Shown here piece after piece: positions 1-23,953 of a DNA stretch of 64,000 nt. This DNA comes from Schmidtea polychroa. Its lineage: Eukaryota. The stretch's first letter is position 1. Every line of letters starts with the position of its first letter. The notes under the pieces are model-generated. The model saw only the letters and a list, made by a program, of their open reading frames with translations. It made no database searches and had not been told where the DNA came from. A program made the translations under genes and the position numbers. Location of the stretch: assembly GCA_044892525.1 (NCBI GenBank), contig CM097885.1, positions 31,250,001-31,314,000 of the forward strand, written 5' to 3'.

Positions 1-3000
1 TGAAAAAGAAAATGACGTGTTTTGCATGCGGAGTTGAAGCCCACGTACGGCGGGAATGTTCAACGATTCAATGCCAGAGATGTCACTTACGTGGACACAA
101 GGAGATTAACTGCTATACAAATTTGAAAGAAGGAAGTTTCAAACTAATTTAAACATGAGAAACAATAATTATTATGCCCATCGAACCACAAGCTTTAAAC
201 AACAGATCAACAATCCAGGAAGAACTATTGCAACAATTGAAGCTAATGATGAGACGATGCCACTGGAGTATTCAGATGATGCAGAAGACAAATATGAGGA
301 TATCCAGCACCCAAAAGTACATGCTTCAACACGGGAGGCAATGATCGGAGCAATATACTAGGTAATTTTGATATTGATGTAAATATTGGTCATAAAAATT
401 TTGATAATGTAAATAATCTTTATATATATATATATATAATAATGTAGAACCTTCATGTAATAAAATTTGTAATTTTAAAAAGTTTCCTTTAAATAATTTT
501 AAATGTTATGGTTATTTTAATGCTGATCGATCTTTAATAAATAATAATAATAATCCTAAGAATCAAGAAGAGTATAATGAAATTAAAGAAGCAGAATATA
601 ATAATAAAATAGTAAATGAAAATGTTTATAAAATTATTAAAAAGGCAAAAGATAAATTAGAGAGAAATGAAATTGGGTGGATTAATGAAATATCAGAGGA
701 GCAAAATATTTTCACTAAAAATGAATGGAAACGATCGATACTGAGTTATGACAAAATGCAAGGTAGACCGAGTACAACTCTTGAAATTCAGGGCTTTAGA
801 ATGGAATGCTTACTAGATACAGGAGCAAGAGTAAATGTAATGGCAGAAGCAGTTGTGGACAAATTAGTGAATGTGAAAATCATAAAAACAGATGAGATGT
901 TAAGATGTGCCAAATAATAGTAAATTAGAGACAATCGGAAAAATACATATTGATGTCAGAATTGGTAATATGGAAAGAAAAATAACATTTATAATAGTTA
1001 AAAATATTGTTCCAGATATAATAGGCAGGGTGGAATTGCAGAAAGAGTTTGGAATTGAATTAAACTACATCAAGCAAAATGAAGAAGGATATAATGAATT
1101 TGTGTGTGAAATAGAAGCTAGATTTGGGGAAAAGATTACAGATAACGAGAGATGTCAAAAAGCAATAGAAATTCTAAGATTAAACAAAAATAAAAGACTG
1201 TTAGAGATTGTTAAAAACAATAAAAGTGTTTTTATGGCTAATAACTTGGATATCGGATGTACTGATTAAATTGCACATAAAATCATCACAAAAGAAGGGC
1301 CAATTATGATAAAACCCTGAAGACAACCCATCAATTTAGAGAAGAAAATAAATGCTGCTATAAAAAATTTAGAAAATAATGATATCATAAGAAAATGTAA
1401 TTCACCTTGGAATACGCCGTTAGTATGCGTGTGGAAAAAAGACAAAAAAGATATCAGACTTTGTTTAGATTTTAGACAGCTTAATAAGATTACTGAAAGA
1501 CAAGCTTTTATAAGTTCTATAGACCTTGGGAACACTTATTATCAGGTGAAATTGGACATATAATCGCAAGAAAAGACAGCATTTTCTACTAAAGAAGGGC
1601 AATTTTGTTTTAATAGAATGCCTTTTGGCATTGCGGTGGCACTGGGTACATTCCAAGAATTAATGACAAAAATATTGAAAGATCTATGGAAAGAAGGAGT
1701 TATGGTGTAATTAGACGATATTTTAATTTTTACAAGAACAATTGAAGAACATTACAATGTGTTTGGAAAAGTTCTAGAGAAAATACGGGAAGCTAAATTG
1801 AGAATCAACCCAGAAAAATGTCAGTTATTAAAGAGCGAAGTAAAGTTTTTAGGGCACATTATTAACAGTGAGGGGATTCGGACCGATCAAAGTAAAATTG
1901 AGGCTATTAAATCATTCCAGAGGCTTAAGTGTATAAAGAATTTGAGAAGTTTTTTAGGTATATATAACTATTATCGGAGATTTATTAAGGAATATGCAAC
2001 AAAATGAAAAGCGCTAGAAAGCATATGTGGAAACAATAGTGAAAAGATAATCTGGACTGAGGAATGTGAGAAAGCTTTCGAAGAAATGAAAATGGCTTTG
2101 ACTACAGCGCTAATTCTCGTATTTCCAGATTTCGAGAAAGAATTCATATTAGATACAGACGCAAGCTTTGATACAATTGGAGCTGTATTATCACAAAGAG
2201 ATGAAATGGGGCATGAACACGTTATTGCATATGGATCCCATGGAATGAGTAGCCATGAAAGAGGATATTGTATAACACGAAAAGAGCTTTTAGCTATATA
2301 TTATTTCTGTCGTCATTTCAGCCATTATTTATATGGTAAATGATTTGTTTTGCGCACTGATCATAAAGCAATAACTTTTATGTTAACGACAAAGAAGCCT
2401 ATAGCAGCACAGTTCTAAACGTGGATAAATTACTTGAGCAGTTTAGACATAAAAATGGAGTTCAGAAAAGGTACGGCGCATACGAATGCAGATATGCTGT
2501 CTAGAAATACATACGGAAAATGTGTACAATGTTTGATGGACCATGATAACCCCAAATCAGGGCGATTAAAAACTAGATTGTTAACATTGATGACAGAAAA
2601 TAATGGGAATGAATGGCAAAGAGATAATGCAGAAATACAAGATATAAAAGATCAAATAAATGAAAGGAAAAATAATAAATATATGTTAAAAGGAAATATT
2701 ATCTATACCAATCAAAACAAAATATGGATACCAGAAACAAAAAGACGAGAAATGATTAAGTAAACACATTTATTATTATGCCACGCAGGAGTAGAAAAAG
2801 TTATGAAATATATTAGGAACAATTTTGATATAGAAGATTTGCTAAATGAAGTAAAAGAGACTATTTCAATATGTGAAGCATGTCAGAAAACAAAGTTTTA
2901 ACTACAGAGTCAAAAGAAAAAACCCAAGTAATTCAAGTTTCAGAACCTATGGAGAAAATATACATGGATATTTGCAGTCCATTAAGAGAAACCTTCAGAG

Positions 3001-3982
3001 GAGAAAAATATATTTGTGCAATAATCGATCGTTACAGTAAATAAATATCTCTAACTCCTATTAGAAAGCAAGATGAAAATACAATAAAGGCAGTTCTGTT
3101 AAATAATTGGATATTGAAATTTGGAGCTCCTAAAGAACTACATGTTGATTGTGGAAAGAATTTCGAAGCAAATAGCATTAAAGAACTAGCAAAGGCAGCA
3201 GGAATTGAGTTGATATTTTCGAGTCCGTATCATCATAATACTAATGGTGTAATTGAAAGACAATTTCGTACTATAAGAGACTATATTAACGCGTCACTCA
3301 GAGAAGGAGTTTAAAAAAGTTGGGCAGAATTAATAGCTGATATAGAATACGTTTTAAATGCGACAGCTCAAAAAAACAACTGGAGTGAGTCCAGCAGAAA
3401 TTATATTTGGGAGAAAGATTAATAGATCGCAATGGCATGGTAATAATGAAGTAGATAGAAATGAAATCATGCGGAAATTAGAGGCTAAAAGACGGCAAGT
3501 GAAAGAAATTGGCACAACTAGGAACTTAAAAGTGGGGGACAAAGTATTGGTGAAACAAGAAATTAGAAACAAAGATCACGAGAGATATGAAGGACCAGAC
3601 ACAGTAATAAAACGAAATCATGAAAGAAGTTACTTATTAACAGACGAAAACGGGAGAAAAATAACGAGGAATATAGAAAAGTTAAAGCATTTTAAAGAAA
3701 GGGGGATGTAAGGAGTTTGTAAACCCCTATATAAAATTACAGCAACTATACATTGCAGTTAATAAAAACACTAAATTGCAATTTATGTTAGTAAAAATCT
3801 ATCTCGAAAAAGTGTTGTAAAATCGAATTTTTTAGTTACCGCATGTACGGAATAGTTTAGTCTGGGAATTTAGTTTCTTCGGGAGCCTAAATCTCGAAAA
3901 GTAATAAGTGATTTGAAAATAAAAATAGGTTTGAACATATATTTTACGTATCTACCCATACCTTGCTGGAATACACCTTATG
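1..3982 (+). mobile_element. Degenerate Ty3/Gypsy LTR retrotransposon, 5' part outside the window (gag Zn-knuckles, PR, RT, RNase H, IN, PPT, 3' LTR)
   Basis: Knuckles CFACGVEAHVRREC and CQRCHLRGHKEINC at ~18-114; protease LLDTGARVNV at ~810; RT motifs SPWNTPLVCVWKK, CLDFRQLN, RMPFG and degenerate (Y)LDDI; RNase H LDTDASFDTIGAVL; integrase HVDCGKNF, SPYHHNTNGVIER. Order PR-RT-RH-IN; many stops and frameshifts. Confidence 0.95.
3707..3982 (+). repeat. Putative 3' LTR of the Gypsy element
   Basis: Polypurine tract AAAGAAAGGGGGA directly followed by TGTAAGG at 3707; TATA-like CCTATATAAAA and AATAAA inside. Right end is uncertain (CCTTATG at 3976-3982). Confidence 0.6.
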
Positions 3983-8430: not shown

Positions 8431-9275
8431 AAAGATTTTACGACAATAGATGGCGGCGTTATTGGAACGGTTTATTAAACAGTTTATAATTATTGTTTAT
8501 CTATCTATAGTTAACTATAGTTAAACAAAAAATACTTTTGCATTCCTTTGTTTTAATGTACTTACTCGTTTATTTGTTTTACTTTTTATTTATAAAAATA
8601 TACTTTGTCTTTGTGAATTCATCTCTAAATATTCAATTTTGAGTTTTAATTAATTATTTAATATGTAAAATGGGTTAGATCGCAAAATACGGCCTTTTTT
8701 CAAAATAAGAATTTGAATTATTTATTTATTTAATCCCTATGTCAATATATTTAAAAATTTCAGGAAAGAGAGCTCTTGGAGAATATGAAATAATAGATAT
8801 TTTACAGAATACTGGCTTTTTAAAAACGCAAGTTAATTGTGAAAATTGCACAATTTTTTTGGGTCTACAGGTGTATAACGCGCACCTTGATGGCTTTAAT
8901 TTTAGGTGAAATTCATGCACGAATAAATCATCTATCAGAATTGGATCTATTCTGAGTAATTCAAAGCTTAGTTTAAGCAAAGTCTTGAGTCTAATTTATA
9001 GGTTTTCCCATGAAATACTTGTTGTTGTTGATACCGGTTTGGAACCCGGTACAACTAATATAATATATTTTTAGAGAGGCTCTAGAAAATCATGAAAAGG
9101 CTAATTTTGAAAATCTCGGTGGAGAAAATCACAAGGTGCAGATTGACGAGATTGTCATCTCCAAAAAGAAAATATAACAGAGGTAGAGTGTTGCCTCAAC
9201 AGTGGTTTTTTGGCGCAATAGATATCATTTCAAATCATTGTATTTTACGATGCATAGATAATAGAAGTAGAGAAA

Positions 9276-10829
9276 AGTAGTAGGATTGGGGCTCCCCAGA
9301 TCAGGAGCTCCCCGCATCACATATACCCCCTCCCCCCCCCCCCCGGGAAAAAATTTTTTTTTTAAAAAATAAAAGGTCAAGGTCATTTATTTTTTTTTTT
9401 TATTTAATTTTTTGTTTTAATTAAGTGATCTGGCGGGCTCCTACTTTTTTTCATCCCAAAAATTAATGTTCCCGCCAACGGACTTTATTGGACGATACCT
9501 CATCTTAAAGCTCAGTCCAAGACCTTTCGAATGAGCTATAGGTATCATATATATCCTTAATAGTTTTAATGTTATTAACAATTGATGACCACCATCTTTT
9601 CAACGTTAAATTATTATTATTTTCCAAAATATTATTAAGTGATCTGGCGGGCTCACACTTTTTTTTCATCCCAAAAATTAATGTTCCCACCAACAGATTT
9701 TATTGACCGATACCTCATCTTAAAGCCCAGTCCAAGACCTTTCGAATGAGCTATAGGTATCATATATATCTTTAATAGTTTTAATGTTATTAACATTTGA
9801 TGACCACCATCTTTTCAACGTTAAATTATTATTATTATTCAAAATATTATTAATTGGCCGGGCGGGGACATACTTTTTCTCATCCCAAAAATTAATGTTG
9901 CCATTATTCGAATTTATTAATCGATAGCTTATTTTGAAGCGTAGTCTAAGACCTTTCAATTGAGCCATAGAAGGTATCATCATCATTAACATCGGCAAAG
10001 TTATTAAAGTTTTACCGAGACCATTTTTCAAGGTCATTTATTTTTCAAAATATTATTTTCAAGGTCAAGGTCAAGGTCATTTATTTTTTCAAGGTCATTT
10101 ATTTTTTCAAGGTCATTTATTTTTTCAAGGTCATTTATTTTTTCAAGGTCATATTTTAAAATTTAAATGTACAGAGTTCCCGACAACGATAATTATTCAA
10201 CGATAGCTCATTTTAAAGCCCAATGCAAGACCTTTCGATTGATTCATAGAAGGTATCATCATCATTATTATTGACAAAGTTATTAACAATTGATGACCAC
10301 CATCTTTTCAACGTTAAATTATTATTATTTTCCAAAATATTATTAATTGGCCGGGAGGGCCCCTACTCTTTTTCATCCCAAAAATTAATGTTCCCATTAT
10401 CCGAATTTATTGGACGATACCTCATCTTAAAGCTCAGTCCAAGACCTTTCGAATGAGCCATAGAAGGTATCATCATCATTAATATTAACAAAGAGAATGA
10501 CTCACCCAATGACTCACCCAACGATGTCTAATATTTTTAGAACGATGACTCATCAAGGTCATTCCCAAGGTCATATGACTCATCAAGGTCAAGGTCATTT
10601 TTTTTTTAATTTAATTTTTTGTTTTAATTAAGTAATCTTTTTATTTTCAAGGTCATTTAATTTTCAAGGTCATTTAATTTTCAAGGTCATTTAATTTTTC
10701 AAGGTCATTTAATTTTCAAGGTCATTTACTTTTCAAGGTCATTTAATTTTTCAAGGTCATTTATTAAAATAATTATTATTTTCTAAGTTTTTAGTTTCTA
10801 AGTTTTATTATTATTATTATTATTATTAT
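9276..10829 (+). repeat. Left terminal inverted repeat (~1.55 kb) of ~214-bp degenerate units plus TCAAGGTCA/TGACTCA arrays
   Basis: Reverse complement of 22601-23953 apart from one extra ~214-bp unit and one extra 17-bp unit; looser homology continues inward to ~10960. Confidence 0.93.
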
Positions 10830-10831
10830 CA

Positions 10832-10965
10832 TATATACACCGAGTCTATCCGACAAGATATTCTGTCTCCCTATGGGTATTGCTAGCAAGGGTACTACTC
10901 ACATTCAACAAGTCACAAATGTACTACTCACACTCAACAAGTCACATGGGTACTGTTCACAAAGC
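10832..10965 (+). repeat. Conserved ~65-bp motif (TATATAC..AGTCTATCCGACAAGATATTCTGTCYCCCTATGGGTA) followed by 29-bp tandem units
   Basis: Further copies on - at ~19335-19420, ~21210-21301, ~22470-22591 and on + at ~63440-63505. Confidence 0.85.
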
Positions 10966-11027
10966 TACTGGTAAAAATATTCAAGACAAAACTTTCTAAA
11001 TTCTAAATATTATTCTTTAAATATACA

Positions 11028-11386
11028 CTAAAATTTATTAACACATTCACATTCATCATCTCCACAGTTCATAACATTTTCAACAACATGATCTATACAA
11101 TCCCTATATACACACGGTTCAGTATCCGTAAATTCCTCCATAGGTTCATCAATTTCTTGAATGCTTTCCTCATCATCTTGAGTGTTTTCTTCATCTGTTT
11201 CATCAAATTCCGAATCTTCACTCTCTGCTACCCAGTCTATATTTAATGCGTTTGTAACAGATAATATATCCGCCATTTTCACACCAGATATTTCTGCTAA
11301 TTTTTCCAATAAAAAGTTTATTATAAATTCTAAATATTAAATAATTCGATAATTAACTAATCATATTAACCTTTTTCTGTAGTCAT
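11028..11386 (-). CDS. Polinton small acidic protein of unknown function; exons 11386-11371 and 11329-11028
   Basis: ATG ACT ACA GAA AAA G|GTTAAT...TTTAG|AA TTT: a 41-bp intron joins in frame to give MTTEKEFIINFLLEKLAEISG...; D/E-rich middle and Cys-containing C-terminus. Confidence 0.7.
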
Positions 11387-11482
11387 TATTAGTATTTTAA
11401 AACTATAGTATATATTTGTTTATAGAAAATATAGAATATAAGCGAAAACAAATATGACTAAATACATTTATTAAATACAACA

Positions 11483-11902
11483 TTAAAATAACTGTGAAAG
11501 TCTAGCAGACATAATTTTCCAAATTGGAGAATACACATCATTATTATCAACTTTATATCCTTGGATTGTAATTGTTATATACCAATTTTCGTTTTCTTTG
11601 AAACTGATTTCATCAAAGGAATCATAAAATTTTGCATATCGGTTGTTGAAAAATGCATTTTGATTGCATGATAGATTCGTATTCAACCTTTTGAAAACAT
11701 CATCTATGGTTTTAATATCTAACATTGAAAGCGTGCCGGTTAAGAATTGAAATTGGGTAGGAATTAGCTTGATCGGTGACACCAATTTCATATTGATTTC
11801 TTCTTTTAAAAAATACATTTTGTAGTTGTGGAACATTTGAACAGGTTGTACAAGTTCTGGAACTACTTTTGGTTTTTCAGTGCTTGAAATTTTCTTGGTC
11901 AT
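11483..11902 (-). CDS. Polinton hypothetical protein (139 aa)
   Basis: Intact ORF with upstream TATAAAA and CCAAT boxes; no family recognised with certainty. Confidence 0.75.
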   Translation of the reverse strand: MTKKISSTEKPKVVPELVQPVQMFHNYKMYFLKEEINMKLVSPIKLIPTQFQFLTGTLSMLDIKTIDDVFKRLNTNLSCNQNAFFNNRYAKFYDSFDEISFKENENWYITITIQGYKVDNNDVYSPIWKIMSARLSQLF

Positions 11903-11935
11903 TGTGAATTATGATTAAAATGAAATGGTATAGGG

Positions 11936-11969
11936 TTTTTATACCTATGACTATTGTTTATCATCCAAT
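11936..11969 (-). promoter_or_regulatory. Pol II-type core promoter (TATA box plus CCAAT box) for the 139-aa gene
   Basis: Minus strand reads CTGATTGG...GGTATAAAAACC; TATA box at 11943-11936, ~40 bp upstream of the ATG at 11902. Confidence 0.55.
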
Positions 11970-12010
11970 CAGATTGCAGTATGTTTTTGTTTTAATTGAA
12001 TGATAAATAA

Positions 12011-12475
12011 TTAATTAAGTGATAATAAAAAATCTAAAAATTCTTTTCCTTCAATTATTGATTTAATTTCAGATATGATATTATCAACTATACTTTTGTA
12101 TTCAATATTTTTTATTCCAAGAATTACTATCTTACCGCTAGCGAATATATTTACACACATAGGGTTATATTTTATATATCTCAAAGCTGGAAATAATTCT
12201 GGTTCATAAAAGCATGGTATTAATTTAGCTAATTTATTTAAATTACAAGAAAAACCTATATCGGAAGTTACGGTTATCGATTGTATTTCTAAATCATAAA
12301 CATTATATTCACTAGCTTTGATTATTTCCTTACACCCCATAATTCTACATTTACCAGTTTTGAAATATATTATTGGATATTTATTACTTCTATTGATAAG
12401 TTGTTGTGGTTTCCCTATTGGAAATACCATTTTTGATACATCAGTTTTTGCCCTGTAATTTATATTTGAAAGCAT
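12011..12475 (-). CDS. Virus-encoded TATA-binding protein (TBP)-like protein, core domain only
   Basis: Two TBP repeats: LSNINY...IIYFKTGKCRIMGCK and EIQSITVTSDIGFSCNLNKLA...FYEPELFPALRY...VNIFASGKIVILGIK (canonical TBP has YEPELFPGLIYR and LLIFVSGKVVLTGAK). Confidence 0.9.
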   Translation of the reverse strand: MLSNINYRAKTDVSKMVFPIGKPQQLINRSNKYPIIYFKTGKCRIMGCKEIIKASEYNVYDLEIQSITVTSDIGFSCNLNKLAKLIPCFYEPELFPALRYIKYNPMCVNIFASGKIVILGIKNIEYKSIVDNIISEIKSIIEGKEFLDFLLSLN

Positions 12476-12579
12476 TTTAATGAAATAATTTTAAAAACTT
12501 TGATATATATAGGTATTTAAAAACAGAGTTCATTTAAATTATCAATATAAACAATAATTATATAGTTTAAATTTAAAAA

Positions 12580-13218
12580 ATGGAATTACGAAATGATGCA
12601 GTATACCAAATCGTTGGTCCAAGTGGTAGCGGGAAAACTTTATTTGTTTGTAAATTACTAAAATCAAATTTGTTTAAAACAAAATTCAACAATATTTATT
12701 GGCATAGGGGCGCCGACGAAGAACACGGATTGACGCAATCAAGTTTCTGTCAGTTGAAAAACATGAAAATAGTAAAGGGCTTTGATAAAAACTGGTCAAG
12801 TCGTTTGAAGAAAGATGATGTCATCATTATCGATGATTTGTATCAAGAAGCCAATAAAGAAAAGGACTTTAATAATTTATTCACAAAAATCAGCAGACAT
12901 GTTGGTGTAACAGTTATTTTCATAACACAAAATCTATTTCATCAAGGTGGTGCACATCGAACACGTAATTTAAATGTACAATATTTAGTTATTTTCAAGA
13001 ATCCTAGAGATGCAACTGTCATTGATTTTCTTGGACGACAAGCATACCCTAATAACCGTAATTTTCTTATCAGTGCATTTCAAGATGCCACGAAAATACC
13101 GCATGGGTATATATTTCTCGATTTCACACAACAATGCCCTGATGATATACGGGTAAAAACAGATATTTTCAACCCAAAAGGTGCCATGGTATATAAACAA
13201 AGTTCAAAACAAAGTTGA
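12580..13218 (+). CDS. FtsK-HerA/A32-like genome packaging ATPase
   Basis: Walker A GPSGSGKT, Walker B IIIDD, ITQNLF and YLVIFKNPRD motifs typical of Polinton ATPases. Confidence 0.95.
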   Translation: MELRNDAVYQIVGPSGSGKTLFVCKLLKSNLFKTKFNNIYWHRGADEEHGLTQSSFCQLKNMKIVKGFDKNWSSRLKKDDVIIIDDLYQEANKEKDFNNLFTKISRHVGVTVIFITQNLFHQGGAHRTRNLNVQYLVIFKNPRDATVIDFLGRQAYPNNRNFLISAFQDATKIPHGYIFLDFTQQCPDDIRVKTDIFNPKGAMVYKQSSKQS

Positions 13219-13231
13219 AAACATATAAATC

Positions 13232-13726
13232 ATGTTTTCAAAAACAAGGATATCGGGTAAAAAACAACCAAAAGTTCCACCAACAACTAGTTATACTCCA
13301 TCTAAAGATCTTATTACAGAAAATTTTCCTGCAATGAATCTTATTTCGAAAAATCCTAAACCTAAACCAAAAAGTAAAACCACAAAGAAAGTAAAAGTTG
13401 TTAAAAATCATCGGAGTTTCCCGTTTTTCAATACATTGTTAAAGGCACCAAGTATGAAAAGAAACAGTATTTTGCAATCATTTCCAAATTATGTTGTCGA
13501 TGATTTACTCGATATTATACTTAAAGTAGTCAAAGGCAAGATTAAAATCAGTAAATCTAAAAAGCAATTATTGAGTAAACATAGGAAACCTTTGCTATCA
13601 TTAGTAAATAATAAAAATCGTCAACAAATGAGAAAAATTATATATAAACAACAAGGGGGATTTATCGGTGCATTGATACCTTTAGCAATATCATTATTAG
13701 GTGGAATAATAGGAAGTCGATCATAA
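13232..13726 (+). CDS. Basic Polinton protein with an adenovirus pX-like hydrophobic C-terminus
   Basis: Lys-rich body; ends QQGG|FIGALIPLAISLLGGII, resembling the adenoviral pX GG|xLPxLIPxI cleavage and hydrophobic tail. Confidence 0.8.
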   Translation: MFSKTRISGKKQPKVPPTTSYTPSKDLITENFPAMNLISKNPKPKPKSKTTKKVKVVKNHRSFPFFNTLLKAPSMKRNSILQSFPNYVVDDLLDIILKVVKGKIKISKSKKQLLSKHRKPLLSLVNNKNRQQMRKIIYKQQGGFIGALIPLAISLLGGIIGSRS

Positions 13727-13729
13727 ACA

Positions 13730-13957
13730 ATGGGTGCTAATCCTTCATTACCAGACATTAAATTTAATATTAAATCTTCTTGTTGTAATGGAGAAGATTT
13801 GGACGAACCCGGAAGACGAAGCCGGTTTTGGTGGAGTGGCAAAATTAAGGAAAAGAGTTCCGAATTCGAAAAAGGAAACACAGAAGTGGTTATCAGACCA
13901 GCTTGCGTACAGTTTGAACAAACCAATGCGGAAACGATTCCCAACAAGAGCATATAA
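13730..13957 (+). CDS. Small, putatively N-myristoylated protein overprinting the integrase 5' end
   Basis: ATG lies 3 nt after the previous stop in AAACAATGG context; MGANPS fits MGxxxS; SSCC could be acylated. Confidence 0.5.
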   Translation: MGANPSLPDIKFNIKSSCCNGEDLDEPGRRSRFWWSGKIKEKSSEFEKGNTEVVIRPACVQFEQTNAETIPNKSI

Positions 13958-14843
13958 AACATATGGAATAAATGATTTATGGCAAATGGATTTGATGGAG
14001 ATGATACCCTATTCGAAAATTAACAATGGGTATAAATATATTTTAACATGTATTGATGTATTCAGTCGGTTTGCCCGAGCAATACCCGTCAAGGCAAAAT
14101 CTGCAGATGAAATGTCCAAAGCTGTTAATCATTTATTTAAAGACGGACATCCTAAAAACTTGCAAACTGATTTAGGTATTAATATTATTATTTTTATTAT
14201 TATTATTATTATTTTAGGTAAAGAATTCTACAACAGTAAAGTCAAGCAAATCCTCATTAAATTGAAAATAAACCATTACTCAGTACATTCTCAATACAAA
14301 GCTGCTCATGTTGAAAGATTTAACCGAACTTTGAGAGATAGATTAAAGAAATTATTCGTGCATCAAGGTAATAAAAAATGGGTATTGGTTTTACCAAAAA
14401 TAATAACCAGTTATAATCACTCATCACATCAAGGACTGAATGGATTAAGGCCGATTGATATCACGTCAAAAACAATCTATTCTAAAAAACCTGAAAAAAT
14501 TACAAAACCGAAATATAAAGTAGGTGACCATGTTAGAATTAGTAAAATTAGTGCATCACCATTTATTAAAAATTTCGATACAAATTGGAGTGATGAAGTC
14601 TTTGTAATTTCAAAAATAAATACTAAACAGAATCCTGTAATGTATGTCATCAAAGATAATGATAACAATATTGTACAAGGAAAATTTTATGAGCAGGAAT
14701 TACAAGTTATTCCTCCCCCAAAAGTATTTAGAATTCAGAAGATTTTGAAAACTAAAAATAAAGGCAAGGATAAACAATACTATGTCAAATGGCATGGTTA
14801 TCAAAACCCATCATGGATATCAGAAAAGGATCTAGTAAAGTGA
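13788..14843 (+). CDS. Polinton RVE (DDE) integrase with C-terminal chromodomain-like region; 42-bp intron at 14176-14217
   Basis: LWQMDL, CIDVFSRF, QTDLG|KEF after removing GTATT...TTTAG, AAHVERFNRTL, YKVGDHVRIS, NWSDEVF, YYVKWHGY; likely start MEKIWTNP at 13788. Confidence 0.95.
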   Translation: MEKIWTNPEDEAGFGGVAKLRKRVPNSKKETQKWLSDQLAYSLNKPMRKRFPTRAYKTYGINDLWQMDLMEMIPYSKINNGYKYILTCIDVFSRFARAIPVKAKSADEMSKAVNHLFKDGHPKNLQTDLGINIIIFIIIIIILGKEFYNSKVKQILIKLKINHYSVHSQYKAAHVERFNRTLRDRLKKLFVHQGNKKWVLVLPKIITSYNHSSHQGLNGLRPIDITSKTIYSKKPEKITKPKYKVGDHVRISKISASPFIKNFDTNWSDEVFVISKINTKQNPVMYVIKDNDNNIVQGKFYEQELQVIPPPKVFRIQKILKTKNKGKDKQYYVKWHGYQNPSWISEKDLVK

Positions 14844-15856
14844 ATTTTTATACTATTTTACCAAGCAATAGTTGCCCGCTTATTCATCCAGATAATCAAG
14901 CCAGTAAATTCATGGTCAATCTCCAGAATCCGATTTCTTTAAATGGGGACTGGGAAGTTGCACTGCAAGATTTTACATTCGTGTACAATACATTCCCATT
15001 TTATAGTCAATGTAAGATTGATTTCAAAAGGAATGCTATGAAAACATGTAGTGGTATCTTTATTATCAGTAATTATGATAAAACATATCATATTCCGAAT
15101 CAAATATTAGATCAGCACTGCTCTATGTTTTACAAGGATGGATTAAATATCAGTTGTGATTTTAAACCATTTACAATAACATTCGAATATATTGAAGATG
15201 CCAGACGAATGGGTTGCAATAAGTTGAAAAATGAAGTTATGGAAACAGAATATTTATTACGCTTTGATCTATTTGAAGCAAACAGTGTAATGAGAGAAGA
15301 AATCAAAATATCAGTGTCGTATAATAATGAAGTTGAAGAATCATTCACCTTCGCTGACGAATTATATATTGATAAACTTGATGTGTTACTTAAATATTTA
15401 AAGTATAATTGTTCACACATATTTAAAAGTTTGGACATTGTGAAAGATTTGTTATTTACCTTCAGTTTGAATGATGACATTTGCGAAGTTACATTTGATA
15501 AAAATTTGACAAATACACTTGGATTAGAGAAGCAGCAATATCGGGAAAAATCGGCTGGTATACGTAAACCAAGAATACTTGAACATCATCAACAAATGTT
15601 CATATATACTAATATTATTGAGCCTATAATAGTTGGTGATTCCAGTGTTCCTCTATTGAAATCGGTGTGGATTGGAAAATATGAACATGATGAAGTTGTC
15701 AATATAAATATAGATAATCCCATGTATTTACCAATTTCAAGCTCATGTATAAACAATATAGAAATAAATATTCGTGACGATAGTGGAAAACTTATAAACT
15801 TCCCAAAAGACTCAAAAACTCATTTGACACTACATTTTCGTAAAGTAGATGGCTAA
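14813..15856 (+). CDS. Minor capsid protein (penton)
   Basis: FYTILPSNS..PDN..F...L..PISL.GDWEVAL N-terminus; MFIYTNIIEPIIVGD..VPLL...YLPI...IEINIRD..G...LTLHFRK C-terminus. Start is 14789 or 14813. Confidence 0.88.
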   Translation: MDIRKGSSKVNFYTILPSNSCPLIHPDNQASKFMVNLQNPISLNGDWEVALQDFTFVYNTFPFYSQCKIDFKRNAMKTCSGIFIISNYDKTYHIPNQILDQHCSMFYKDGLNISCDFKPFTITFEYIEDARRMGCNKLKNEVMETEYLLRFDLFEANSVMREEIKISVSYNNEVEESFTFADELYIDKLDVLLKYLKYNCSHIFKSLDIVKDLLFTFSLNDDICEVTFDKNLTNTLGLEKQQYREKSAGIRKPRILEHHQQMFIYTNIIEPIIVGDSSVPLLKSVWIGKYEHDEVVNINIDNPMYLPISSSCINNIEINIRDDSGKLINFPKDSKTHLTLHFRKVDG

Positions 15857-16211
15857 TTCCGATATTATTAGTATGTATAGTGATAGCCAATCTGGTGGTG
15901 AATTACCATATTTTATTGGTAAACAGTATGGATCAGGTTGGTTAAAAACAATAGGGAGATTTGCACTTCCCATTCTTAAACGTATTGGTAGTTTTGGCAT
16001 GAAAACTGCTAAAGATGTGATTATGAATGAACAGAAAATATTACCATCCCTAAAAACAAATGCTTTAGCGGAGTTAGGGAAGGTTCTACCTGGAGTTGCT
16101 GGTATGTTTCAAAAAGATACGCCTCCAGCCCCAGCTCCAAAACGTAAAGGGCATGGAATATCGCGTATAAACAAACGAATGAAAGGACATGGAACTATAT
16201 TTGCAAAATGA
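15849..16211 (+). CDS. Small basic Polinton core-like protein
   Basis: QSGGELPYFIGKQYGSG..IGRFALPILK pattern and basic tail with GxG motifs; lies between the minor and major capsid genes with overlapping start/stop codons. Confidence 0.8.
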   Translation: MANSDIISMYSDSQSGGELPYFIGKQYGSGWLKTIGRFALPILKRIGSFGMKTAKDVIMNEQKILPSLKTNALAELGKVLPGVAGMFQKDTPPAPAPKRKGHGISRINKRMKGHGTIFAK

Positions 16212-17431
16212 TTTGTGGTAAATCCGAATTATGTATATTTGATAGACCATCGCCCCAGGCTGTAATAGAATTTGGTGCCTTTGAGGAAGTTTTTCCTATG
16301 AATTCAATTACTGATAGTAGAAATGATATCGAGTTTTATATTAATGGTTCGCAAACTGAATATTTAGATTTGAACGATACTTTATTGACTGTTCAGATCA
16401 AGGTTGTAGATAAAGATAGAAAGGTTTTGGATGCCAATGCGGATGTATTACCAAACAATTTCATGTTTCATACTCTGTTTAAAGATGCAGTGTTGGGATT
16501 TAATAATATCAAGATTGAGGGTGGAAATAATACATTCATTCACAAGGCTTTGATAGAAACTATTTTAAATTACAATTCAGATACTAAAAATACCTGTCTT
16601 ACACCTATGGGTTATGCAGCAGCAGATGATGAAAGAAAAAAGTGGGTTAAAGGCTCAAAAGTATTCACTATGTGCTCATCATTACAACTTGATTTTATGG
16701 ATCAACCGAAATATTTACTACCGGGAGTTAATATACATATTAGACTGAAAAGATCTGATTCTGCATTGTCTCTTACTAGTGCAACTGGTGCACCAATATG
16801 TCAATTAGTTGATGCAAAATTATTGGTGAGAAGAGTTCGAGTAGACCCGTCAGTATTAGCTGGTCATCAATTGGGGCTTAATTCAAAACATGCAATTTAT
16901 CCTTTAAAAACAAAGGAAATTGTACAATTTGCTATTGCTAAAGGTGCTTCATCATTCTATAAAGAACAAATATTTGGTGACAGAAGAATGCCTAATTTTA
17001 TTCTGGTAACATTTCAAAGTGAAACGCAATATAATGGATCGTATACTGCTTCCAGCTCAATTTTCAAAAATTTTGGTGTTACTTCATTGACTTTATCGAA
17101 AAATACTGATTATAGAGAAACATATACTCAAGATTTCGAGAATGATAATTACTGTGCGACATATATGCAGAGTATTGTTAGAAATCTAGGTTATTTAGAT
17201 AAAAACTTGAATTGTGGAATAACTCTTGAAGAATTTAAAAGCAAATACCCATTTTTCACATTTGTTCTAGCTCCCGATTTTGATTTAAATCAGAGTCAAT
17301 TACCACAAAACGGGAATTTACGACTGGATATAAAGTTTGCAAAGGCCATTACTGAACCAGTACATGTTATAATATATGGAGTATTTGAAAATGAAGTTCA
17401 AATTACTGCAAATAGAACCGTGCTAGTATAA
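16208..17431 (+). CDS. Major capsid protein (double jelly-roll, Polinton PY type)
   Basis: CGKSELCIF..P..Q, IEFYI.G..TEYLDLNDTLL, PNNFMFHTLF, QPKYLLPGV, HAIYP, GNLRLDIKFA, VIIYGVFENEVQITANR. Confidence 0.92.
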   Translation: MICGKSELCIFDRPSPQAVIEFGAFEEVFPMNSITDSRNDIEFYINGSQTEYLDLNDTLLTVQIKVVDKDRKVLDANADVLPNNFMFHTLFKDAVLGFNNIKIEGGNNTFIHKALIETILNYNSDTKNTCLTPMGYAAADDERKKWVKGSKVFTMCSSLQLDFMDQPKYLLPGVNIHIRLKRSDSALSLTSATGAPICQLVDAKLLVRRVRVDPSVLAGHQLGLNSKHAIYPLKTKEIVQFAIAKGASSFYKEQIFGDRRMPNFILVTFQSETQYNGSYTASSSIFKNFGVTSLTLSKNTDYRETYTQDFENDNYCATYMQSIVRNLGYLDKNLNCGITLEEFKSKYPFFTFVLAPDFDLNQSQLPQNGNLRLDIKFAKAITEPVHVIIYGVFENEVQITANRTVLV

Positions 17432-17459
17432 ATGTATACAGAAACACCAAAAAGTTGTC

Positions 17460-17843
17460 ATGGAGTAAGTTTTTCAATACTGTTTAATTTATTAAAGTAG
17501 TTCTGTTCAGGTCAATAGAATTGGAAAACAGATATTGGGAAATGAATTTGTAGGAGTTTTTCCTCTCGATAAAATCCCATATTTGAGCAATAATCAAGCC
17601 ATAATCGTCAATACTCAATCGTCTCATCTTGGTGGAGAACATTGGATTGCTATATATGTGAAACCTAGTAATATATTCGTGTTCGATCCTATGGGTTTCT
17701 ATTACCCTGCTTTGTTGGTATCAAAACTACAAACAATGGGGAAACCTATTGTATATAATAAAACAATGTTTCAAAATCCCTTGACACAAACATGCGGTCA
17801 ACATTGTTTAGCTTGGTTGTTGTATAAAAAATTTGATGATTAA
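17460..17843 (+). CDS. Adenain-like capsid maturation cysteine protease (spliced)
   Basis: FVGVFPLD, IVNT, GEHWIAI (His), FDPMG (Asp), FQ...TCGQHC (Gln/Cys). Donor GTAAGT at 17465; the acceptor at 17500 gives MDSVQVNRIGK from ATG 17460, while ATG 17432 with the acceptor at 17510 is also in frame. Confidence 0.92.
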
Positions 17844-17873
17844 TAAATGTATTTTGTATCCTTTGTTGTTGTT

Positions 17874-17904
<31 letters not shown>

Positions 17905-20900
17905 TTTTATTATTATTATTATTATTATTTGTGATTTTGAAAGATATATCACGTTATAATTGCTATATAATTAGCTGAATCGATGAAGAATTATGATCAA
18001 TCAATATATTTCATCTCTAGTTAGGTATTTGATGATACATGTGGTTAAATATTGATTTTAGTGAATTTTGATCTTTTAGTGGACTCTTTGAATTTAGATA
18101 CTAAATTATTTCAATGGACGGATGTCTGTAACAAATAAATAAAATTCATATTTTGAAGAATTTTCTATGGATTTTAAGAGAATTGATATATTAAAGGTCT
18201 GATATATTATAGCCGGTTGGAATTAGTGAAGGTTCAGTTAAAATGGTAATATATGATTTTTAAGGGGTGTTTAAAATGATAGAAATATTTGGTGAGGAAT
18301 CGGTTATGGTGGAAATGTTTGAAATCTCTATTTAAATCGACAATGTTCTTATTGGTAAAATTTTAAAGGGAAATAGTCAGTATTTAGCTATGAATTAATA
18401 ATAGTTCCTGTGAAATTATATCGTTTTAGAGGTTTATTAGGTTGTGATGAATGTTATTGCACAGTAATTTAGATTTATGTTTTAGAACCAGTTTTTTATT
18501 AATTATCCATTGTTTTATTAAGTCGTTTAGGGTTAATGATCAATTTACTTGGTTTTCACAATGAAATATTTGAAATCTTTAGAATTAATTGGGATTGATA
18601 TCAAAGGTTATTGCTTTAAATTATTTTACTTAAGAAGTTATTTTATTCATTGTGGGGACATCAGTGACAAAACTTGAGAAATATTGACTTAAAAGTTGGA
18701 AATCGACAACGGCTAAAGAAAATTGATCTTTATTGAAGGAATTTTATGATTTTAATTAGAAATTAAATCGGTTGAATATTAAAGGTAAAATCTATTGAAG
18801 GAATATTATTATCGGATGGATAAATGATATTTTGCTAAATTACCTTTGCTAAATATTATTTTAAATGACTAAAAATAACAAAATTAACCAATATTCATAA
18901 ATTTATCGCACAAAATATCCATGTTTTGGTTACTCAAACATCTTAAATTTCTCGCAAAGATATATTACGTCTAATGATCATCTAATTAAATTAGAAAATA
19001 ATTGTTACTTTATATTTCTAACTAATAAGCCCCTTAATTGGATAAATGATAACCATATTTCTATTATGACTCCTTTAAATATTTTTGCCTCAAACAAATT
19101 TACTCCAAATGATAAAGAATTTAAAATTATCAATGAATAATGACCATGTTTTTCTCATATTATTAACTATTGTAACGAACATTAGATGAATAAATTAATT
19201 TTTGCTTTAAATGACTACAAAGTTAACCAATAAATTAGTCGCTCGACATAAGTGTAAAGTTACATTTAAAATATTCACGAATTTCTGATCATCTCACTAA
19301 ATTACCTAAGAATTTCTAAATGATTAATATAGCCTTGCGACATGTTGAATGTGACCAGTACCCTTGCTAGCAATACCCATAGGGGGACAGAATATTTTGT
19401 CGGATAAACTAGGAGTATATGGTCTTTATTGATATATCAAAATACTGTTATTTATAAATCAACTAAAAATACTCAAAAATACTATATTATTTTACTGAAT
19501 GATACCTTAAATGTTTTTAATATACATATTTCTAAAATAAATCAACAGTTCAAACCAACAACATGTATGGATGACCACCCATTGTTAATTTATTCCCAGT
19601 GTCACGTCCCTCAAAAATACCGTGAGTGTTTTAACAAAACTGAGCTCAAAGAAACTTTCCAGATAACAACTCACCTGAATGTTTTGAACAAAAATGAGCG
19701 AAATTGAGAACAAACGATTAGATGGCGATTAACTTCTGGCCACAACCCTAACAACATGAAAATTAAGATTTTAATTATTGAATTCGTTGTTTACTGCCTG
19801 GAAATACTAACAGAATATTTTTTAATTCAAAGAATCTTCATTATAAATTTTGAATTTAAAAAATTAAATGAAGGATATATAAGTGTACATAAAATTATAA
19901 TATTATATAAAATTATACTATATAATAATGTTAATGTTTAAATATGCTTAAATAACTAAATTGTTTAAATATTTTTAAATAACTAAATTAAATTATTTAA
20001 ATTTAAATTATTTAAATATACTTTTGATATAACTTTATTTCTTTCGTTTTAGTATCCATAAAGTAAGTAAATAAAGAATTTACTACAATATTTTAATTAT
20101 TTTACTTAGTAATGAAGAAAATGAATTATATGATTATGAAGAAGATGAACCAGATAAAATGGTGAAACACTAAATGACTTATGTTCTGGATTTAGAAATT
20201 TCTTATTAAAACATGAATTATAGAAAAAAATGAACCAGACAAAATGGTGAAACATTGCTATGTTCCGGATTTCTTAAATGAATTAGCTGATTGTGGGTGT
20301 CCTTCAACATGAATTATCAGACTTAAATTATGTAAACTTTCAACGATTGTCAAGAAAAATGGGAAAAACCGATGTTTTAGCAATTAGATATTGTAAAGTA
20401 CTACCTGAAGAATATTATTATTAATGTAAGACATGAATTAATTCTTTAAAATATATATATTATATTTAGGTATCTGTGTTTTATGGTGGGAAATGACATT
20501 GAAAAAGTATACCACAAATAACAGTTGCCTAATTTATCAAGCCTGTGACGATAAAATGCTAGATAATGTAAGTTAATTGCTTTTAAATCAATATAAATTT
20601 TAGCAATGATAGTTGACGCCGCATCAGAAACTAAGAAATACGTCCAATTTGCAAGATGTATTCCATGAAATCACTATCAAATGGCCTGATGGAGAGATTA
20701 ATTTTGAGATAGATTACCAACAGAAGAGCGAGAAAAATTTGTAAATTAAATATAATAGGGTTGGGTGGGTCCTCTTTATCCCTTAATTAATATATATTTA
20801 CAAGCTGATCGTCGTGGTGGGCGGTTGTAATCCAACTAGTGGGAGGCCTCTGTAAATATATATTTGTGTTAGTGAAAACATTAATTAATTTGGTTATAGT

Positions 20901-21459
20901 GCCAATGACGCATGTATTTTGAAATTATACGTTTCGAATGTGCTGGTAGTTGACTACCCATGCTAGGCGTAATGTTCCGTACGGAAAACTATAATGCCCA
21001 GGTTCTTCTGACCCCACTTGGGGGAGGCACAGACGACCCTTGTGGACGCGAACAAATATCCACCGTGTCTTTCAGGCACAGATATTTGGTCACTGCTCAT
21101 TAGGCCTGGCAATACTAAATGCATACACTTTGCCTTGTCCTCTCTTGTCTTTATTTTTATCGTTTAAATAGTGTGTGTGATAAGTTTTATTTACTAACCC
21201 TAATTAATATACCCTTGCGATATGTTGAATGTGAGTAGTACCCTTGCTACCATTACCCATAGGGGGACAGAATATCTTGTCGGATAGACTAGGAGTATAT
21301 ACACCCATGTTAAACAAGGTATGTGTATATAGAATGTATGTGTAAAATTATCGCTCCTTATTGAAAATTTCATGTAAAGGCAAACACAGAATACTGCAAA
21401 CATATAATAATACTCTACCCCATAACTTAGTGTGTAAAAATTATTTAAGGTTTTTTCAC

Positions 21460-21526
<67 letters not shown>

Positions 21527-22051
21527 GTTTAATGGGTTGTATATGTGTGTAAAAAATATTTGAGGTTTTCACGAATATTGATAATAATAATGGTTTATGA
21601 GTGTTTTTATGTTTTTGACTAATATTTGCAATAATAATAATGGTTAATGGGTTGTGTGTGTGTGTGTGTAGAAAATATTTTAGGTTTTCACTAATATTGA
21701 TAATAATAATTGTTAGTGGGTTGTGTGAGTGTAAATAATATTTTAGGTTTTTGACTAATATTTGCAATAATAATAATAATAATAATAAGTTTAATGAGTT
21801 GTATGTGTGTGTGTAAAAATATTTTAGGTTTTTAATATTGATAATAATAATAATAATGGTTAATGGGTTGTGTGTGTGTGTAAAAAATATTTTAGGTTTT
21901 CACTAATAATGATAATAATAATGGTTAATGAGTTGTGTGTGTGTGTAGAAAATATTTTAGGTTTTTAATATTGATAATAATAATAATGGTTGAGGGGTTG
22001 TGTGTGTGTGTGTGTAAAAAAAAAAAATATTTTAGGTTTTCACTAATAATG

Positions 22052-22104
<53 letters not shown>

Positions 22105-22105
22105 T
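21460..22105 (+). repeat. Degenerate ~60-bp tandem array inside the Polinton
   Basis: Recurring (AAT)n-GGTTAATGGGTTG(TG)n-TAAAAAATATTTTAGGTTTTCACT units, about 9 copies. Confidence 0.85.
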
Positions 22106-22350
22106 CCCGCGCGTGTTAATATCATTCCCAATAATAATGATGATAATAATTTTTATATATCAGTAGATAGATCTCGCACTGGGCCTTAAAATGAGCTATA
22201 GATCAATAAAATCTGTTGGTGGGAACAATAATTTTTGGGATGAAAAAAAGTAGGTCCCCGCTGGATCACTTAATAATATTTTGAAAAATAATAATAATTT
22301 ATGTGTCATCGTATGAGTCATCGAATGAGTCATCGTTCTAAAAATACATG

Positions 22351-22407
<57 letters not shown>

Positions 22408-22600
22408 TTCTTGGGAGTTGTAATAATAATTCTTTGAAAATATCTTAGTCATTATTAATAATACTAATAATACCCTAGCGAGTTGTTGATTGTGAGCAGT
22501 ACCCTGGTGACTTGTTGAATGTGAGTAGTACATTTGTGTGCAGTACCCATAGGGAGACAGAATATCTTGTCGGATAGACTATGAGTATATAATAATTATA

Positions 22601-22602
22601 AT

Positions 22603-22660
<58 letters not shown>

Positions 22661-23953
22661 CTTAGAAACTAAAAACTTAGAAAATAATAATTATTTTAAT
22701 AAATGACCTTGAAAATTAAATGACCTTGAAAATTAAATGACCTTGAAAATTAAATGACCTTGAAAATTAAATGACCTTGAAAATTAAATGACCTTGAAAA
22801 TAAAAAGATTACTTAATTAAAACAAAAAATTAAATTAAAAAAAAAATGACCTTGACCTTGATGAGTCATATGACCTTGGGAATGACCTTGATGAGTCATC
22901 GTTCTAAAAATATTAGACATCGTTGGGTGAGTCATTGGGTGAGTCATTCTCTTTGTTAATATTAATGATGATGATACCTTCTATGGCTCATTCGAAAGGT
23001 CTTGGACTGAGCTTTAAGATGAGGTATCGTCCAATAAATTCGGATAATGGGAACATTAATTTTTGGGATGAAAAAGAGTAGGGGCCCTCCCGGCCAATTA
23101 ATAATATTTTGGAAAATAATAATAATTTAACGTTGAAAAGATGGTGGTCATCAATTGTTAATAACTTTGTCAATAATAATGATGATGATACCTTCTATGA
23201 ATCAATCGAAAGGTCTTGCATTGGGCTTTAAAATGAGCTATCGTTGAATAATTATCGTTGTCGGGAACTCTGTACATTTAAATTTTAAAATATGACCTTG
23301 AAAAAATAAATGACCTTGAAAAAATAAATGACCTTGAAAAAATAAATGACCTTGAAAAAATAAATGACCTTGACCTTGACCTTGAAAATAATATTTTGAA
23401 AAATAAATGACCTTGAAAAATGGTCTCGGTAAAACTTTAATAACTTTGCCGATGTTAATGATGATGATACCTTCTATGGCTCAATTGAAAGGTCTTAGAC
23501 TACGCTTCAAAATAAGCTATCGATTAATAAATTCGGATAATGGCAACATTAATTTTTGGGATGAGAAAAAGTATGTCCCCGCCCGGCCAATTAATAATAT
23601 TTTGAATAATAATAATAATTTAACGTTGAAAAGATGGTGGTCATCAATTGTTAATAACATTAAAACTATTAAGGATATATATGATACCTATAGCTCATTC
23701 GAAAGGTCTTGGACTGAGCTTTAAGATGAGGTATCGTCCAATAAAGTCCGTTGGCGGGAACATTAATTTTTGGGATGAAAAAAAGTAGGAGCCCGCCAGA
23801 TCACTTAATTAAAACAAAAAATTAAATAAAAAAAAAAATAAATGACCTTGACCTTTTATTTTTTAAAAAAAAAATTTTTTCCCGGGGGGGGGGGGGGAGG
23901 GGGTATATGTGATGCGGGGAGCTCCTGATCTGGGGAGCCCCAATCCTACTACT
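22601..23953 (-). repeat. Right terminal inverted repeat (~1.35 kb)
   Basis: Reverse complement of the left TIR; ends ...CCCAATCCTACTACT. Confidence 0.93.

Follow-up and report, generated by a model that had tools for sequence, protein, structure and literature searches.

The Polinton/Maverick element found in the window (the whole stretch of 64,000 nucleotides of Schmidtea polychroa DNA that was analyzed) carries what we see as a conserved viral TATA-binding protein (TBP) for late genes, in a class of elements for which we have found no such system analyzed. The protein and a shared non-standard box located before packaging and putative capsid genes together suggest a very small late-gene switch that would use the host Pol II. 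Judging from the sequences, it is moderately likely that this TBP is a late-gene factor that reads the box, TATAAACA, brings in TFIIB and Pol II from the host and avoids the regulators to which the host TBP is subject.

The TBP Gene and Its Product

The TBP gene (positions 12011 to 12475, minus strand) is intact from ATG to stop, encodes 154 aa and lies, as proposed in an earlier sequence-only reading of this DNA, inside an element (9276 to 23953) bounded by long terminal inverted repeats (TIRs). Pfam recognizes the TBP family (PF00352) in residues 62 to 135 only, that is, in the second repeat, with an E-value of 1.2e-15 and a score of 57.5 bits against a curated cut-off of 22.9. The first repeat, beyond the Pfam-matched span, is recognized by structure, in an AlphaFold2 model built with 121 sequences (mean pLDDT 96.6) and aligned to yeast TBP. 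Both of the repeats claimed in that reading are present. In VIA-align, model residues 1–145 superpose onto residues 66–240 of yeast TBP (143 aligned, Z 12.6, rmsd 2.7), against a Z of 6.3 for the best non-TBP. The top Foldseek matches are TBPs, an Atlas search with the TBP as query returned only TBP clusters, and 35 of the 36 PDB sequences that match the ORF at E ≤ 1 are TBPs or TBP fusions. The product is a TBP-fold protein with, in the model, the two-lobe saddle, and the proposed fold is borne out by profile and structure alike.

Conservation of individual residues was counted in 120 relatives, with the canonical TBP P0129 as a reference. Exactly three of the phenylalanines that kink the DNA are kept (F38, F95 and F111, each in 120/120 relatives), where at least three of four had been claimed; by spacing, the fourth position corresponds to Pro23, which is Pro in 116/120. 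The EPE stirrup is there as described (E91-P92-E93, with E91 in 113/120 and E93 in 119/120 relatives). The first central Asn, N4, is found in 110/120, and the replacement of the repeat-2 Asn by Ser, noticed before, is at Ser66 and common to 111/120. Other residues are non-canonical yet conserved: N6 (109/120), R44 (119/120), M46 (119/120) and N109 (120/120), all of which we take to be DNA-facing from TBP structures.

The shortening of repeat 1 that had been noted can be located precisely. From N4 to P23 there are 19 residues vs. 30 in P0129, 11 short where helix H1 lies, and the linker from G47 to S66 has 19 residues vs. 34, 15 short where the long helix H2 lies. In the model H1 is missing and the H2 region is reduced to a helix of 4 residues, so the Polinton TBP as modeled lacks the helices on which TFIIA, TAF1 and Mot1 rely in the N-lobe. 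The G47–S66 linker has at most 25 residues in 100 of the 121 rows; in several distant relatives it keeps 29–32 hydrophobic residues with no obvious basic patch.

Organization of the Element

The host genome, that of an animal, is AT-rich and has a size of 781 Mb. The whole Polinton/Maverick copy (9276 to 23953, 14,678 bp) has the termini AGTAGT...ACTACT and a 6-bp target duplication, GAGAAA, on each side (9270–9275 and 23954–23959). Its left (9276–10698) and right (22746–23953) TIRs have inner ends that are approximate. To the left of the element there are decayed retrotransposon-like ORFs (1–3711), to its right an ORF (25100–27143) that we take by resemblance to be DNA-transposase-like, and farther along a tandem array of 27–28-nt units (39899–40592).

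The TBP gene shares the minus strand with a small acidic Cys-rich open frame (11028–11336, 102 aa from stop to stop) and with the gene of a 139-aa OB-fold protein (11483–11902), SSB-like by its structure matches. The latter is most like the T7 gp2.5-type and ASFV CP312R ssDNA-binding proteins, with middling values (Z 7.0–7.2, rmsd 3.1–4.0, 104–116 aligned), and an Atlas search with it gave no usable match. The TBP gene is head-to-head with the ATPase gene, 104 nt separating the two start codons, and is divergent from the virion block, as had been stated. This block, on the plus strand, begins with an A32-type packaging ATPase of 212 aa (12580–13218; PF04665, E 2e-7), followed by a basic protein of 164 aa (13232–13726), an ORF conserved in relatives and possibly a core protein, and by a retroviral-type integrase (INT) with a chromodomain, identified by Pfam (13788–14843). 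Next come a putative minor capsid protein (mCP, 14789–15856), a 120-aa ORF conserved in the Polinton relatives (15849–16211), a putative major capsid protein (MCP) of 407 aa (16208–17431) and the frame of an adenain-type maturation protease (17496–17843; PF00770, E 1.2e-6), which has no in-frame ATG and is possibly spliced. The mCP and MCP genes are presumed to be such by position and by resemblance to known capsid proteins, in the case of the MCP also by size; Pfam gave no significant match to either of the two ORFs of the window.

Several smaller features of this region deserve mention. Positions 14176–14217 of the integrase are an in-frame, AT-rich GT...AG stretch of 42 nt, and in a sister family the frame breaks at the same place; this is a probable spliceosomal intron, which fits nuclear transcription by Pol II. 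A 75-aa ORF (13730–13957), with a Met-Gly start and a Cys-Cys pair, overlaps the start of the integrase; similar starts appear in loci L022, L034, L040, L043 and L067, and its product is possibly a lipid-anchored virion protein. Shortly upstream of the protease and the small acidic frames (17460–17497 and 11337–11390) there is an out-of-frame ATG, located 33 and 38 nt, respectively, after a TATA-like box, and both frames may start with a mini-exon. Contigs from three runs that are only guessed to be RNA, and from a fourth run of uncertain type, overlap portions of this DNA; they have no clear spliced joint and speak neither for nor against expression.

In place of the pPolB of its relatives, the window copy has a stretch without long ORFs (17950–21150) that is repeated in the genome (3836 first-look candidates genome-wide, 40 of them scored). 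This copy has no pPolB ORF, and a tblastn search with long frames taken from 12 related loci brought up no remnant of one. Five scored copies of the stretch lie about 5.5 kb from a TBP match in the same layout, as judged by eye, which indicates that elements lacking pPolB have multiplied as a subfamily. The window copy is a pPolB-less, non-autonomous Polinton and not a complete virus. Its assignment is made by the TIRs, the 6-bp target duplication, the integrase, the ATPase and the protease, with pPolB missing among its marks; the Polinton/Maverick assignment of the sequence-only reading stands, for a copy without pPolB. Several matches to the TBP gene and to the 17950–21150 stretch also occur as inverted pairs a few kb apart (e.g., C1:34132423/34137440 and C2:188885103/188890247), which suggests palindromic non-autonomous derivatives.

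Distribution, Phylogeny and Selection

All 150 scored TBP matches of this genome are 99–100% identical and stop-free (there were 4142 first-look candidates, a figure that is not a copy number). Of eight pPolB loci retrieved from the same genome, six have a nearby TBP gene, 49–62% identical and in one case internally shortened; in the other two the fetched DNA was too short to reach the TBP position. pPolB is, then, present in sister elements that also bear TBP, and the genomic loci found through a distant ATPase carry TBP as well (6/6). Outside this genome we found 98 matching proteins, mostly of about 150 aa. Among 50 metagenome TBP loci, 22 have a core Polinton gene and 15 an SSB-like neighbor, and for those of at least 3 kb the proportion with one or the other reaches 19/21.

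The selection acting on the gene was estimated from 55 TBP frames, in which 91 pairs, not independent of each other, had a dS of 0.05–1.5. The median dN/dS is 0.26, with 90/91 pairs below 0.5 and none above 1, and the Polinton TBP is under purifying selection. Other TBP-bearing Polintons, which the earlier reading had thought worth looking for, do exist as sister families, and their TBP genes evolve under this constraint. One neighboring copy of the window's family has five replacement changes and no silent one, the pattern to be expected of a copy that decays once inserted.

We also built an unrooted tree (83 rows, 176 columns), in which 40 Polinton-type rows (30 labeled by similarity, 10 with known context) fall on one side of a 100/99 branch, apart from 43 cellular-type rows, and the host TBP rows (L085–L088) group with the eukaryotic TBPs (98/91). 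The host and cellular part of the proposed phylogeny is covered by this tree, from which the known giant-virus TBPs were left out. With 19 of the 21 longer metagenome loci being Polinton-type, the low dN/dS and the separation from the host TBPs, TBP is a gene of the Polinton lineage, as the virus-encoded TBP of the earlier reading implied, and not a stray capture.

A recent neutral capture from the host was also considered and is rejected by the dN/dS of about 0.26 and by the host TBPs lying outside the 100/99 branch. Within the lineage the gene appears to have moved. Between the window and loci L030 and L025 the dS of TBP is 1.79 and 1.22, far above that of the flanking genes (ATPase 0.53 and 0.31, INT 0.32, MCP 0.23, SSB-like 0.43), and this excess over the neighbors on both sides suggests that TBP was swapped between Polinton families.

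Some sister elements have additional genes. In one sister family, a Bcl-2 family ORF (L021:4775–5209, minus strand; PF00452, E 1.1e-7) lies beside the genes for the SSB-like protein and TBP; Bcl2 cargo has been reported previously for adintoviruses. A gene for a ubiquitin-conjugating enzyme (L040:222–719, minus strand; PF00179, E 1.7e-12) adjoins a TBP-bearing Polinton gene block. Three TBP-bearing elements contain an ORF of 154–161 aa with a similar start (L040:9591–10055, L063:5870, L071:6495), preceded by the box in two of them and with no Pfam match. As for the host, it has an intron-containing TFIIB (L092), several divergent TBP paralogues (L086–L088) and at least 13 intronless, divergent TFIIB-like frames of about 304 aa in two clusters (G000 C3 38.2–39.1 Mb and C1 23.8–24.2 Mb; e.g., L093:772–1686, minus strand).

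The ATAAAC Box

Within the window, TATAAACA appears five times in the 6.9 kb gene block vs. once in the 49 kb flank. On the plus strand it is located in the intergenic region 34 nt before the ATG of the ATPase (12546–12553), 40 nt before the 164-aa ORF (13192–13199) and, with uncertain assignment, 87 nt before the 75-aa ORF (13643–13650). A variant, CATAAACA, lies 66 nt before the ATG of the integrase (13722–13729), and another, GATAAACA (14769–14776), is found where the integrase gene ends, ahead of the putative mCP gene, and may there reflect protein-coding constraint. Two boxes (15748–15799), TATAAACA at 15748 and TATAAACT at 15793, precede the 120-aa ORF by 101 and 56 nt. The box of the putative MCP (16166–16173) is 42 nt before its ATG and inside the 120-aa ORF, where it encodes I-N-K; since I-N-K is found in the tail of 80/90 homologues of this ORF, the constraint on the protein is inseparable there from any on the box. 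On the minus strand a box (11417–11424) is found 38 nt before the ATG upstream of the small acidic ORF. The protease of the window copy has TATAAAT upstream instead of the box. If the spacing is canonical, the distance from box to ATG (about 34 nt) implies a very short leader.

In the fetched loci, we counted motifs in the 100 nt before each start, with similar sequences collapsed and with L001–L015 and matches lacking a clear start or enough upstream DNA left out. ATAAAC precedes the ATPase in all 15 of the regions left from 23 after dereplication, between −30 and −49 (in shuffled sequences, a mean of 1.2 and at most 4), and the putative MCP in 9/9 (shuffle 1.0). It is also upstream of the 120-aa ORF in 7/8 regions, the protease in 3/4, the 164-aa ORF in 5/8, the integrase in 6/11 and the mCP in 3/10. 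The frequencies before the SSB-like gene (2/11), pPolB (0/3) and the TBP gene itself (3/34, shuffle 1.9) are low. Taking four late genes together (40 regions), ATAAACA occurs in sense orientation in 36 and in antisense in none, and the base that precedes ATAAAC in the ATPase boxes is T (13/15) or C (2/15).

The upstream regions of the TBP genes are of another kind, with an Inr-like motif in 27/34 (shuffle 7.5) and a TATAWAW-like box in 15/34 (shuffle 4.3); CCAAT (10/34, shuffle 5.6, maximum 13) is not significantly enriched. In the window, the candidate for a host-type core promoter of the TBP gene (12479–12511, minus strand) consists of TATATATA about 30 nt before an Inr-like TCATT.

The box extends to distant members of the group. 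Three loci, L071, L074 and L075, also have it; their ATPases share 35–39% identity with that of the window, and their TBPs fall outside the 25-row group of the query. From this we infer that the box is probably older than the loss of H2. The promoters that we examined all belong to lineages that bear TBP and are related by descent, and the box is a candidate target of the TBP. Searches for a TBP-less Polinton gave no confirmed locus in viral contigs (with TBP, the ATPase and three further queries) and a single match, to an unrelated bacterial ABC-type protein, in genome contigs, so that a dependence of the box on the TBP gene is a possibility. In TATAAACA there is now a candidate target for the redirection of host Pol II that the sequence-only reading had suggested.

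A Proposed Mechanism and Its Alternatives

The way in which the late-gene factor could work can be described in four steps. The host machinery would read the TBP gene early from its ordinary TATA and Inr promoter, and the product would then serve the late genes. The TBP would bind TATAAACA about 30–50 nt before the ATPase, the putative capsid and other morphogenesis genes, its recognition presumably retuned by Pro23, Asn6, Arg44, Met46, Ser66 and Asn109 on the DNA-facing strands. To judge by the conserved residues, the EPE stirrup would recruit TFIIB and hence Pol II, and the TFIIB would be that of the host because the elements encode none: a profile search of the window element and loci L016–L084, most of them partial, did not find it. 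Finally, as H1 and H2 are missing from the N-lobe of the model, the protein would bypass TFIIA and TFIID and escape Mot1. The window copy, a pPolB-less derivative that keeps the late module, would need a polymerase from sister elements. To the more complete version of this proposal, a single-protein late switch of a widespread Polinton lineage in which a minimal TBP retuned to TATAAACA depends on nothing from the host but TFIIB and Pol II and does not respond to TFIIA, TFIID or Mot1, we give an even chance. Counted against the late-factor reading are the box frequencies before the SSB-like gene (2/11), the mCP (only 3/10) and the integrase (6/11), together with the TATAAAT of the protease in the window copy, the short leader that canonical spacing would leave, the coding constraint at the MCP box and the common descent of the loci.

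The contact with TFIIB was examined by predicting the complex of the TBP with a host-like TFIIB core, 92% identical to the exon of the host. The ipSAE is 0.47, vs. 0.00 for the best of three controls, the runs agree in at least 90% of the contacts and the partner has a pLDDT of 86. By the scale of the prediction tool this is weak support, given that scores of 0.60 or less were obtained for 5/78 solved complexes and for all four of the 180 mismatched pairs that passed; moreover, TBP–TFIIB is a solved pair, and the prediction may merely reproduce known structures.

A different possibility is that a host factor (the host TBP, a TBP paralogue or a forkhead protein) reads the box, the viral TBP being a general booster that raises the supply of TBP and evades Mot1 and TAF1 without any preference for the box. 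ATAAACA fits the forkhead consensus, the host has several TBP-like and TFIIB-like paralogues, of which the divergent TBPs (L086–L088) could read the box, and all of the box-bearing Polintons examined also bear TBP. In Arabidopsis protoplasts TATAAACG kept 27% activity with the host machinery (PMC10005294, Table 4), which indicates that a host TBP tolerates TATAAAC in part and speaks against exclusivity; a C(-25) TATA variant has also been solved with wild-type TBP, according to the title of entry 1qn3. Against this stand the strict orientation of the box, its narrow spacing, the T or C before ATAAAC in 15/15 ATPase regions and the absence of the forkhead-type GTAAACA from the late-gene regions (0/40), which point to a core-promoter element rather than a forkhead site. 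Nor would a generic booster be expected to come with an invariant C at position 7 of the box and with conserved non-canonical residues on its DNA face. On balance we consider a host reader unlikely. The forkhead site in particular is disfavored, the box being sense-only and GTAAACA missing from all 40 late promoters.

It is quite unlikely, in our opinion, that the TBP provides the DNA-binding part of a viral initiation complex with several subunits, as in the beta- and gamma-herpesviruses, in which another protein of the element supplies the N-lobe surface or the contact with Pol II. The loss of the two helices would expose a face of the sheet, according to the model, and there are small conserved neighbors, the acidic and the 164-aa ORFs. 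However, the commonest neighbor folds like an ssDNA-binding protein, no neighbor is constant across loci, and E91 and E93 are kept in 113/120 and 119/120 relatives, whereas viral TBPs with a partner of their own keep the first in about 40% as reported in PMC7221094.

We regard as very unlikely a decoy function, in which the protein would dampen host transcription by sequestering TFIIB or by sitting on the TATA boxes of host genes, the box being unrelated to it. The TFIIB stirrup is indeed the best-kept partner surface and one of the four kinking Phe has been lost, but the other three, like many positions of the DNA face, vary little or not at all, and a dominant inhibitor would be harder to tolerate in thousands of candidate copies, many of them intact. 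A decoy for Mot1 or NC2, which the earlier reading had also put forward, is not favored because the H2 basic patch that they bind, as described in PMC7221094, is absent from the N-lobe of the model. Finally, a role outside transcription, for example in replication, integration or packaging through the bending of the terminal DNA, would fit the adjoining SSB-like gene of 15/50 metagenome loci and the retention of TBP in a pPolB-less derivative, but is extremely unlikely since the TFIIB-contact glutamates would be needless and the box maps to gene starts (5 in 6.9 kb vs. 1 in 49 kb).

Comparison with Known Systems

The late-gene factor proposed here shares with the cellular TBP family (eukaryotic TBP and TRF, archaeal TBP; PF00352) the two-lobe saddle, three of the four Phe, the first central Asn and the EPE stirrup. 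The Polinton subgroup differs in the loss of the N-lobe H1 and long H2, in Pro for the fourth Phe, in Ser for the second Asn and in several polar residues on the DNA face. Of the traits of a canonical eukaryotic TBP, the complete set of four Phe, the Asn in both repeats and the basic patch of H2 are lacking and the stirrup glutamates are retained. The protein is a member of the TBP fold family that is neither a canonical TBP nor a host paralogue.

In the text of Ravarani et al. (PMC7221094), two C-lobe glutamates of TBP bind TFIIB, and a basic patch largely on the N-lobe H2 binds TFIIA, TAF1, Brf1/2 and Mot1; most viral TBPs are described there as diverged at the TFIIB glutamates (about 40% kept) and accompanied by a TFIIB of their own. 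The word Polinton is absent from the main text of that article. The TBPs of the Nucleocytoviricota resemble ours in being virus-encoded and, as reported in the same work, in having lost the eukaryotic N-lobe signature, and there are fold matches in BFVD. They mostly have diverged glutamates and their own TFIIB, whereas the Polinton TBP keeps the glutamates and comes with no TFIIB in the fetched loci.

The closest parallel in function may be found in the beta- and gamma-herpesviruses, whose TBP-like late factors are described as binding a TATT box and bringing Pol II to structural genes within a six-protein complex (PMC4893493; PMC12197705). With these (BcRF1/ORF24/UL87, the vPIC) the Polinton system would have in common a viral TBP-like protein, a variant TATA box before structural genes and the host Pol II, and BcRF1 is a distant fold match to the Polinton TBP (E 5e-3). 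The herpesvirus proteins are large, form part of six subunits and read TATT; the Polinton TBP is a stand-alone protein of 154 aa with TFIIB glutamates and TATAAACA, in an integrating element of 15 kb. Five more viral proteins complete the complex in herpesviruses, and the window element has few unassigned ORFs. On present evidence the Polinton TBP is not a member of the vPIC, to which it would be most similar in the way it works.

Like other Polinton/Maverick elements (Polintoviricetes, adintoviruses), the window copy has TIRs, a 6-bp duplication, an integrase, an ATPase, a protease and putative capsid genes; unlike a typical one, it lacks pPolB and has TBP. A 'TBP' label does appear in the legend of Figure 5 of Starrett et al. 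(2021; PMC8502044; bioRxiv 10.1101/697771), for MELD viruses with an adintovirus-like PolB. This is a TBP-like gene of a Polinton-related midsize DNA virus, known from a legend entry in the section on non-animal datasets and comparable to ours by its label alone. The text of that section has no analysis, promoter or mechanism for it, and the portion of the supplement consulted has no match to TBP. A TBP in a Polinton-related virus is, therefore, not wholly unreported. The main texts of three Polinton surveys make no mention of TATA (PMC11161782) or of TATA or TBP (10.64898/2026.06.19.733378 and 10.64898/2026.10.13.758929), and in the literature outside subscription papers and Repbase we found no analysis of the Polinton TBP clade or of the box. 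The sequence-only reading was right in that TBP is not reported as a routine Polinton gene in the surveys covered; its impression that the case had not been described holds for any analysis of it and gives way, for the bare presence of the gene, to that single legend label.

Biological Significance

A TBP gene together with a defined box gives access, through a single protein and an intergenic fragment of 104 bp, to the questions of whether Polintons go through a genuine viral cycle and of how genomes of this size control the timing of capsid genes. Planarian Polintons have been described as piRNA-repressed and as rising during differentiation (PMC8532177). The Polinton TBP is also a natural deletion experiment, in which the TFIIB surface has been kept and the regulatory surface dropped. 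As the candidate copies of this genome number in the thousands, their expression, if it occurs, could also reach TATAAACA sites of the host. If the single-protein late switch is real, it would be a convergent and much smaller counterpart of the herpesvirus vPIC, and would provide evidence of a timed viral program in Polintons and a natural orthogonal pair of TBP and promoter.
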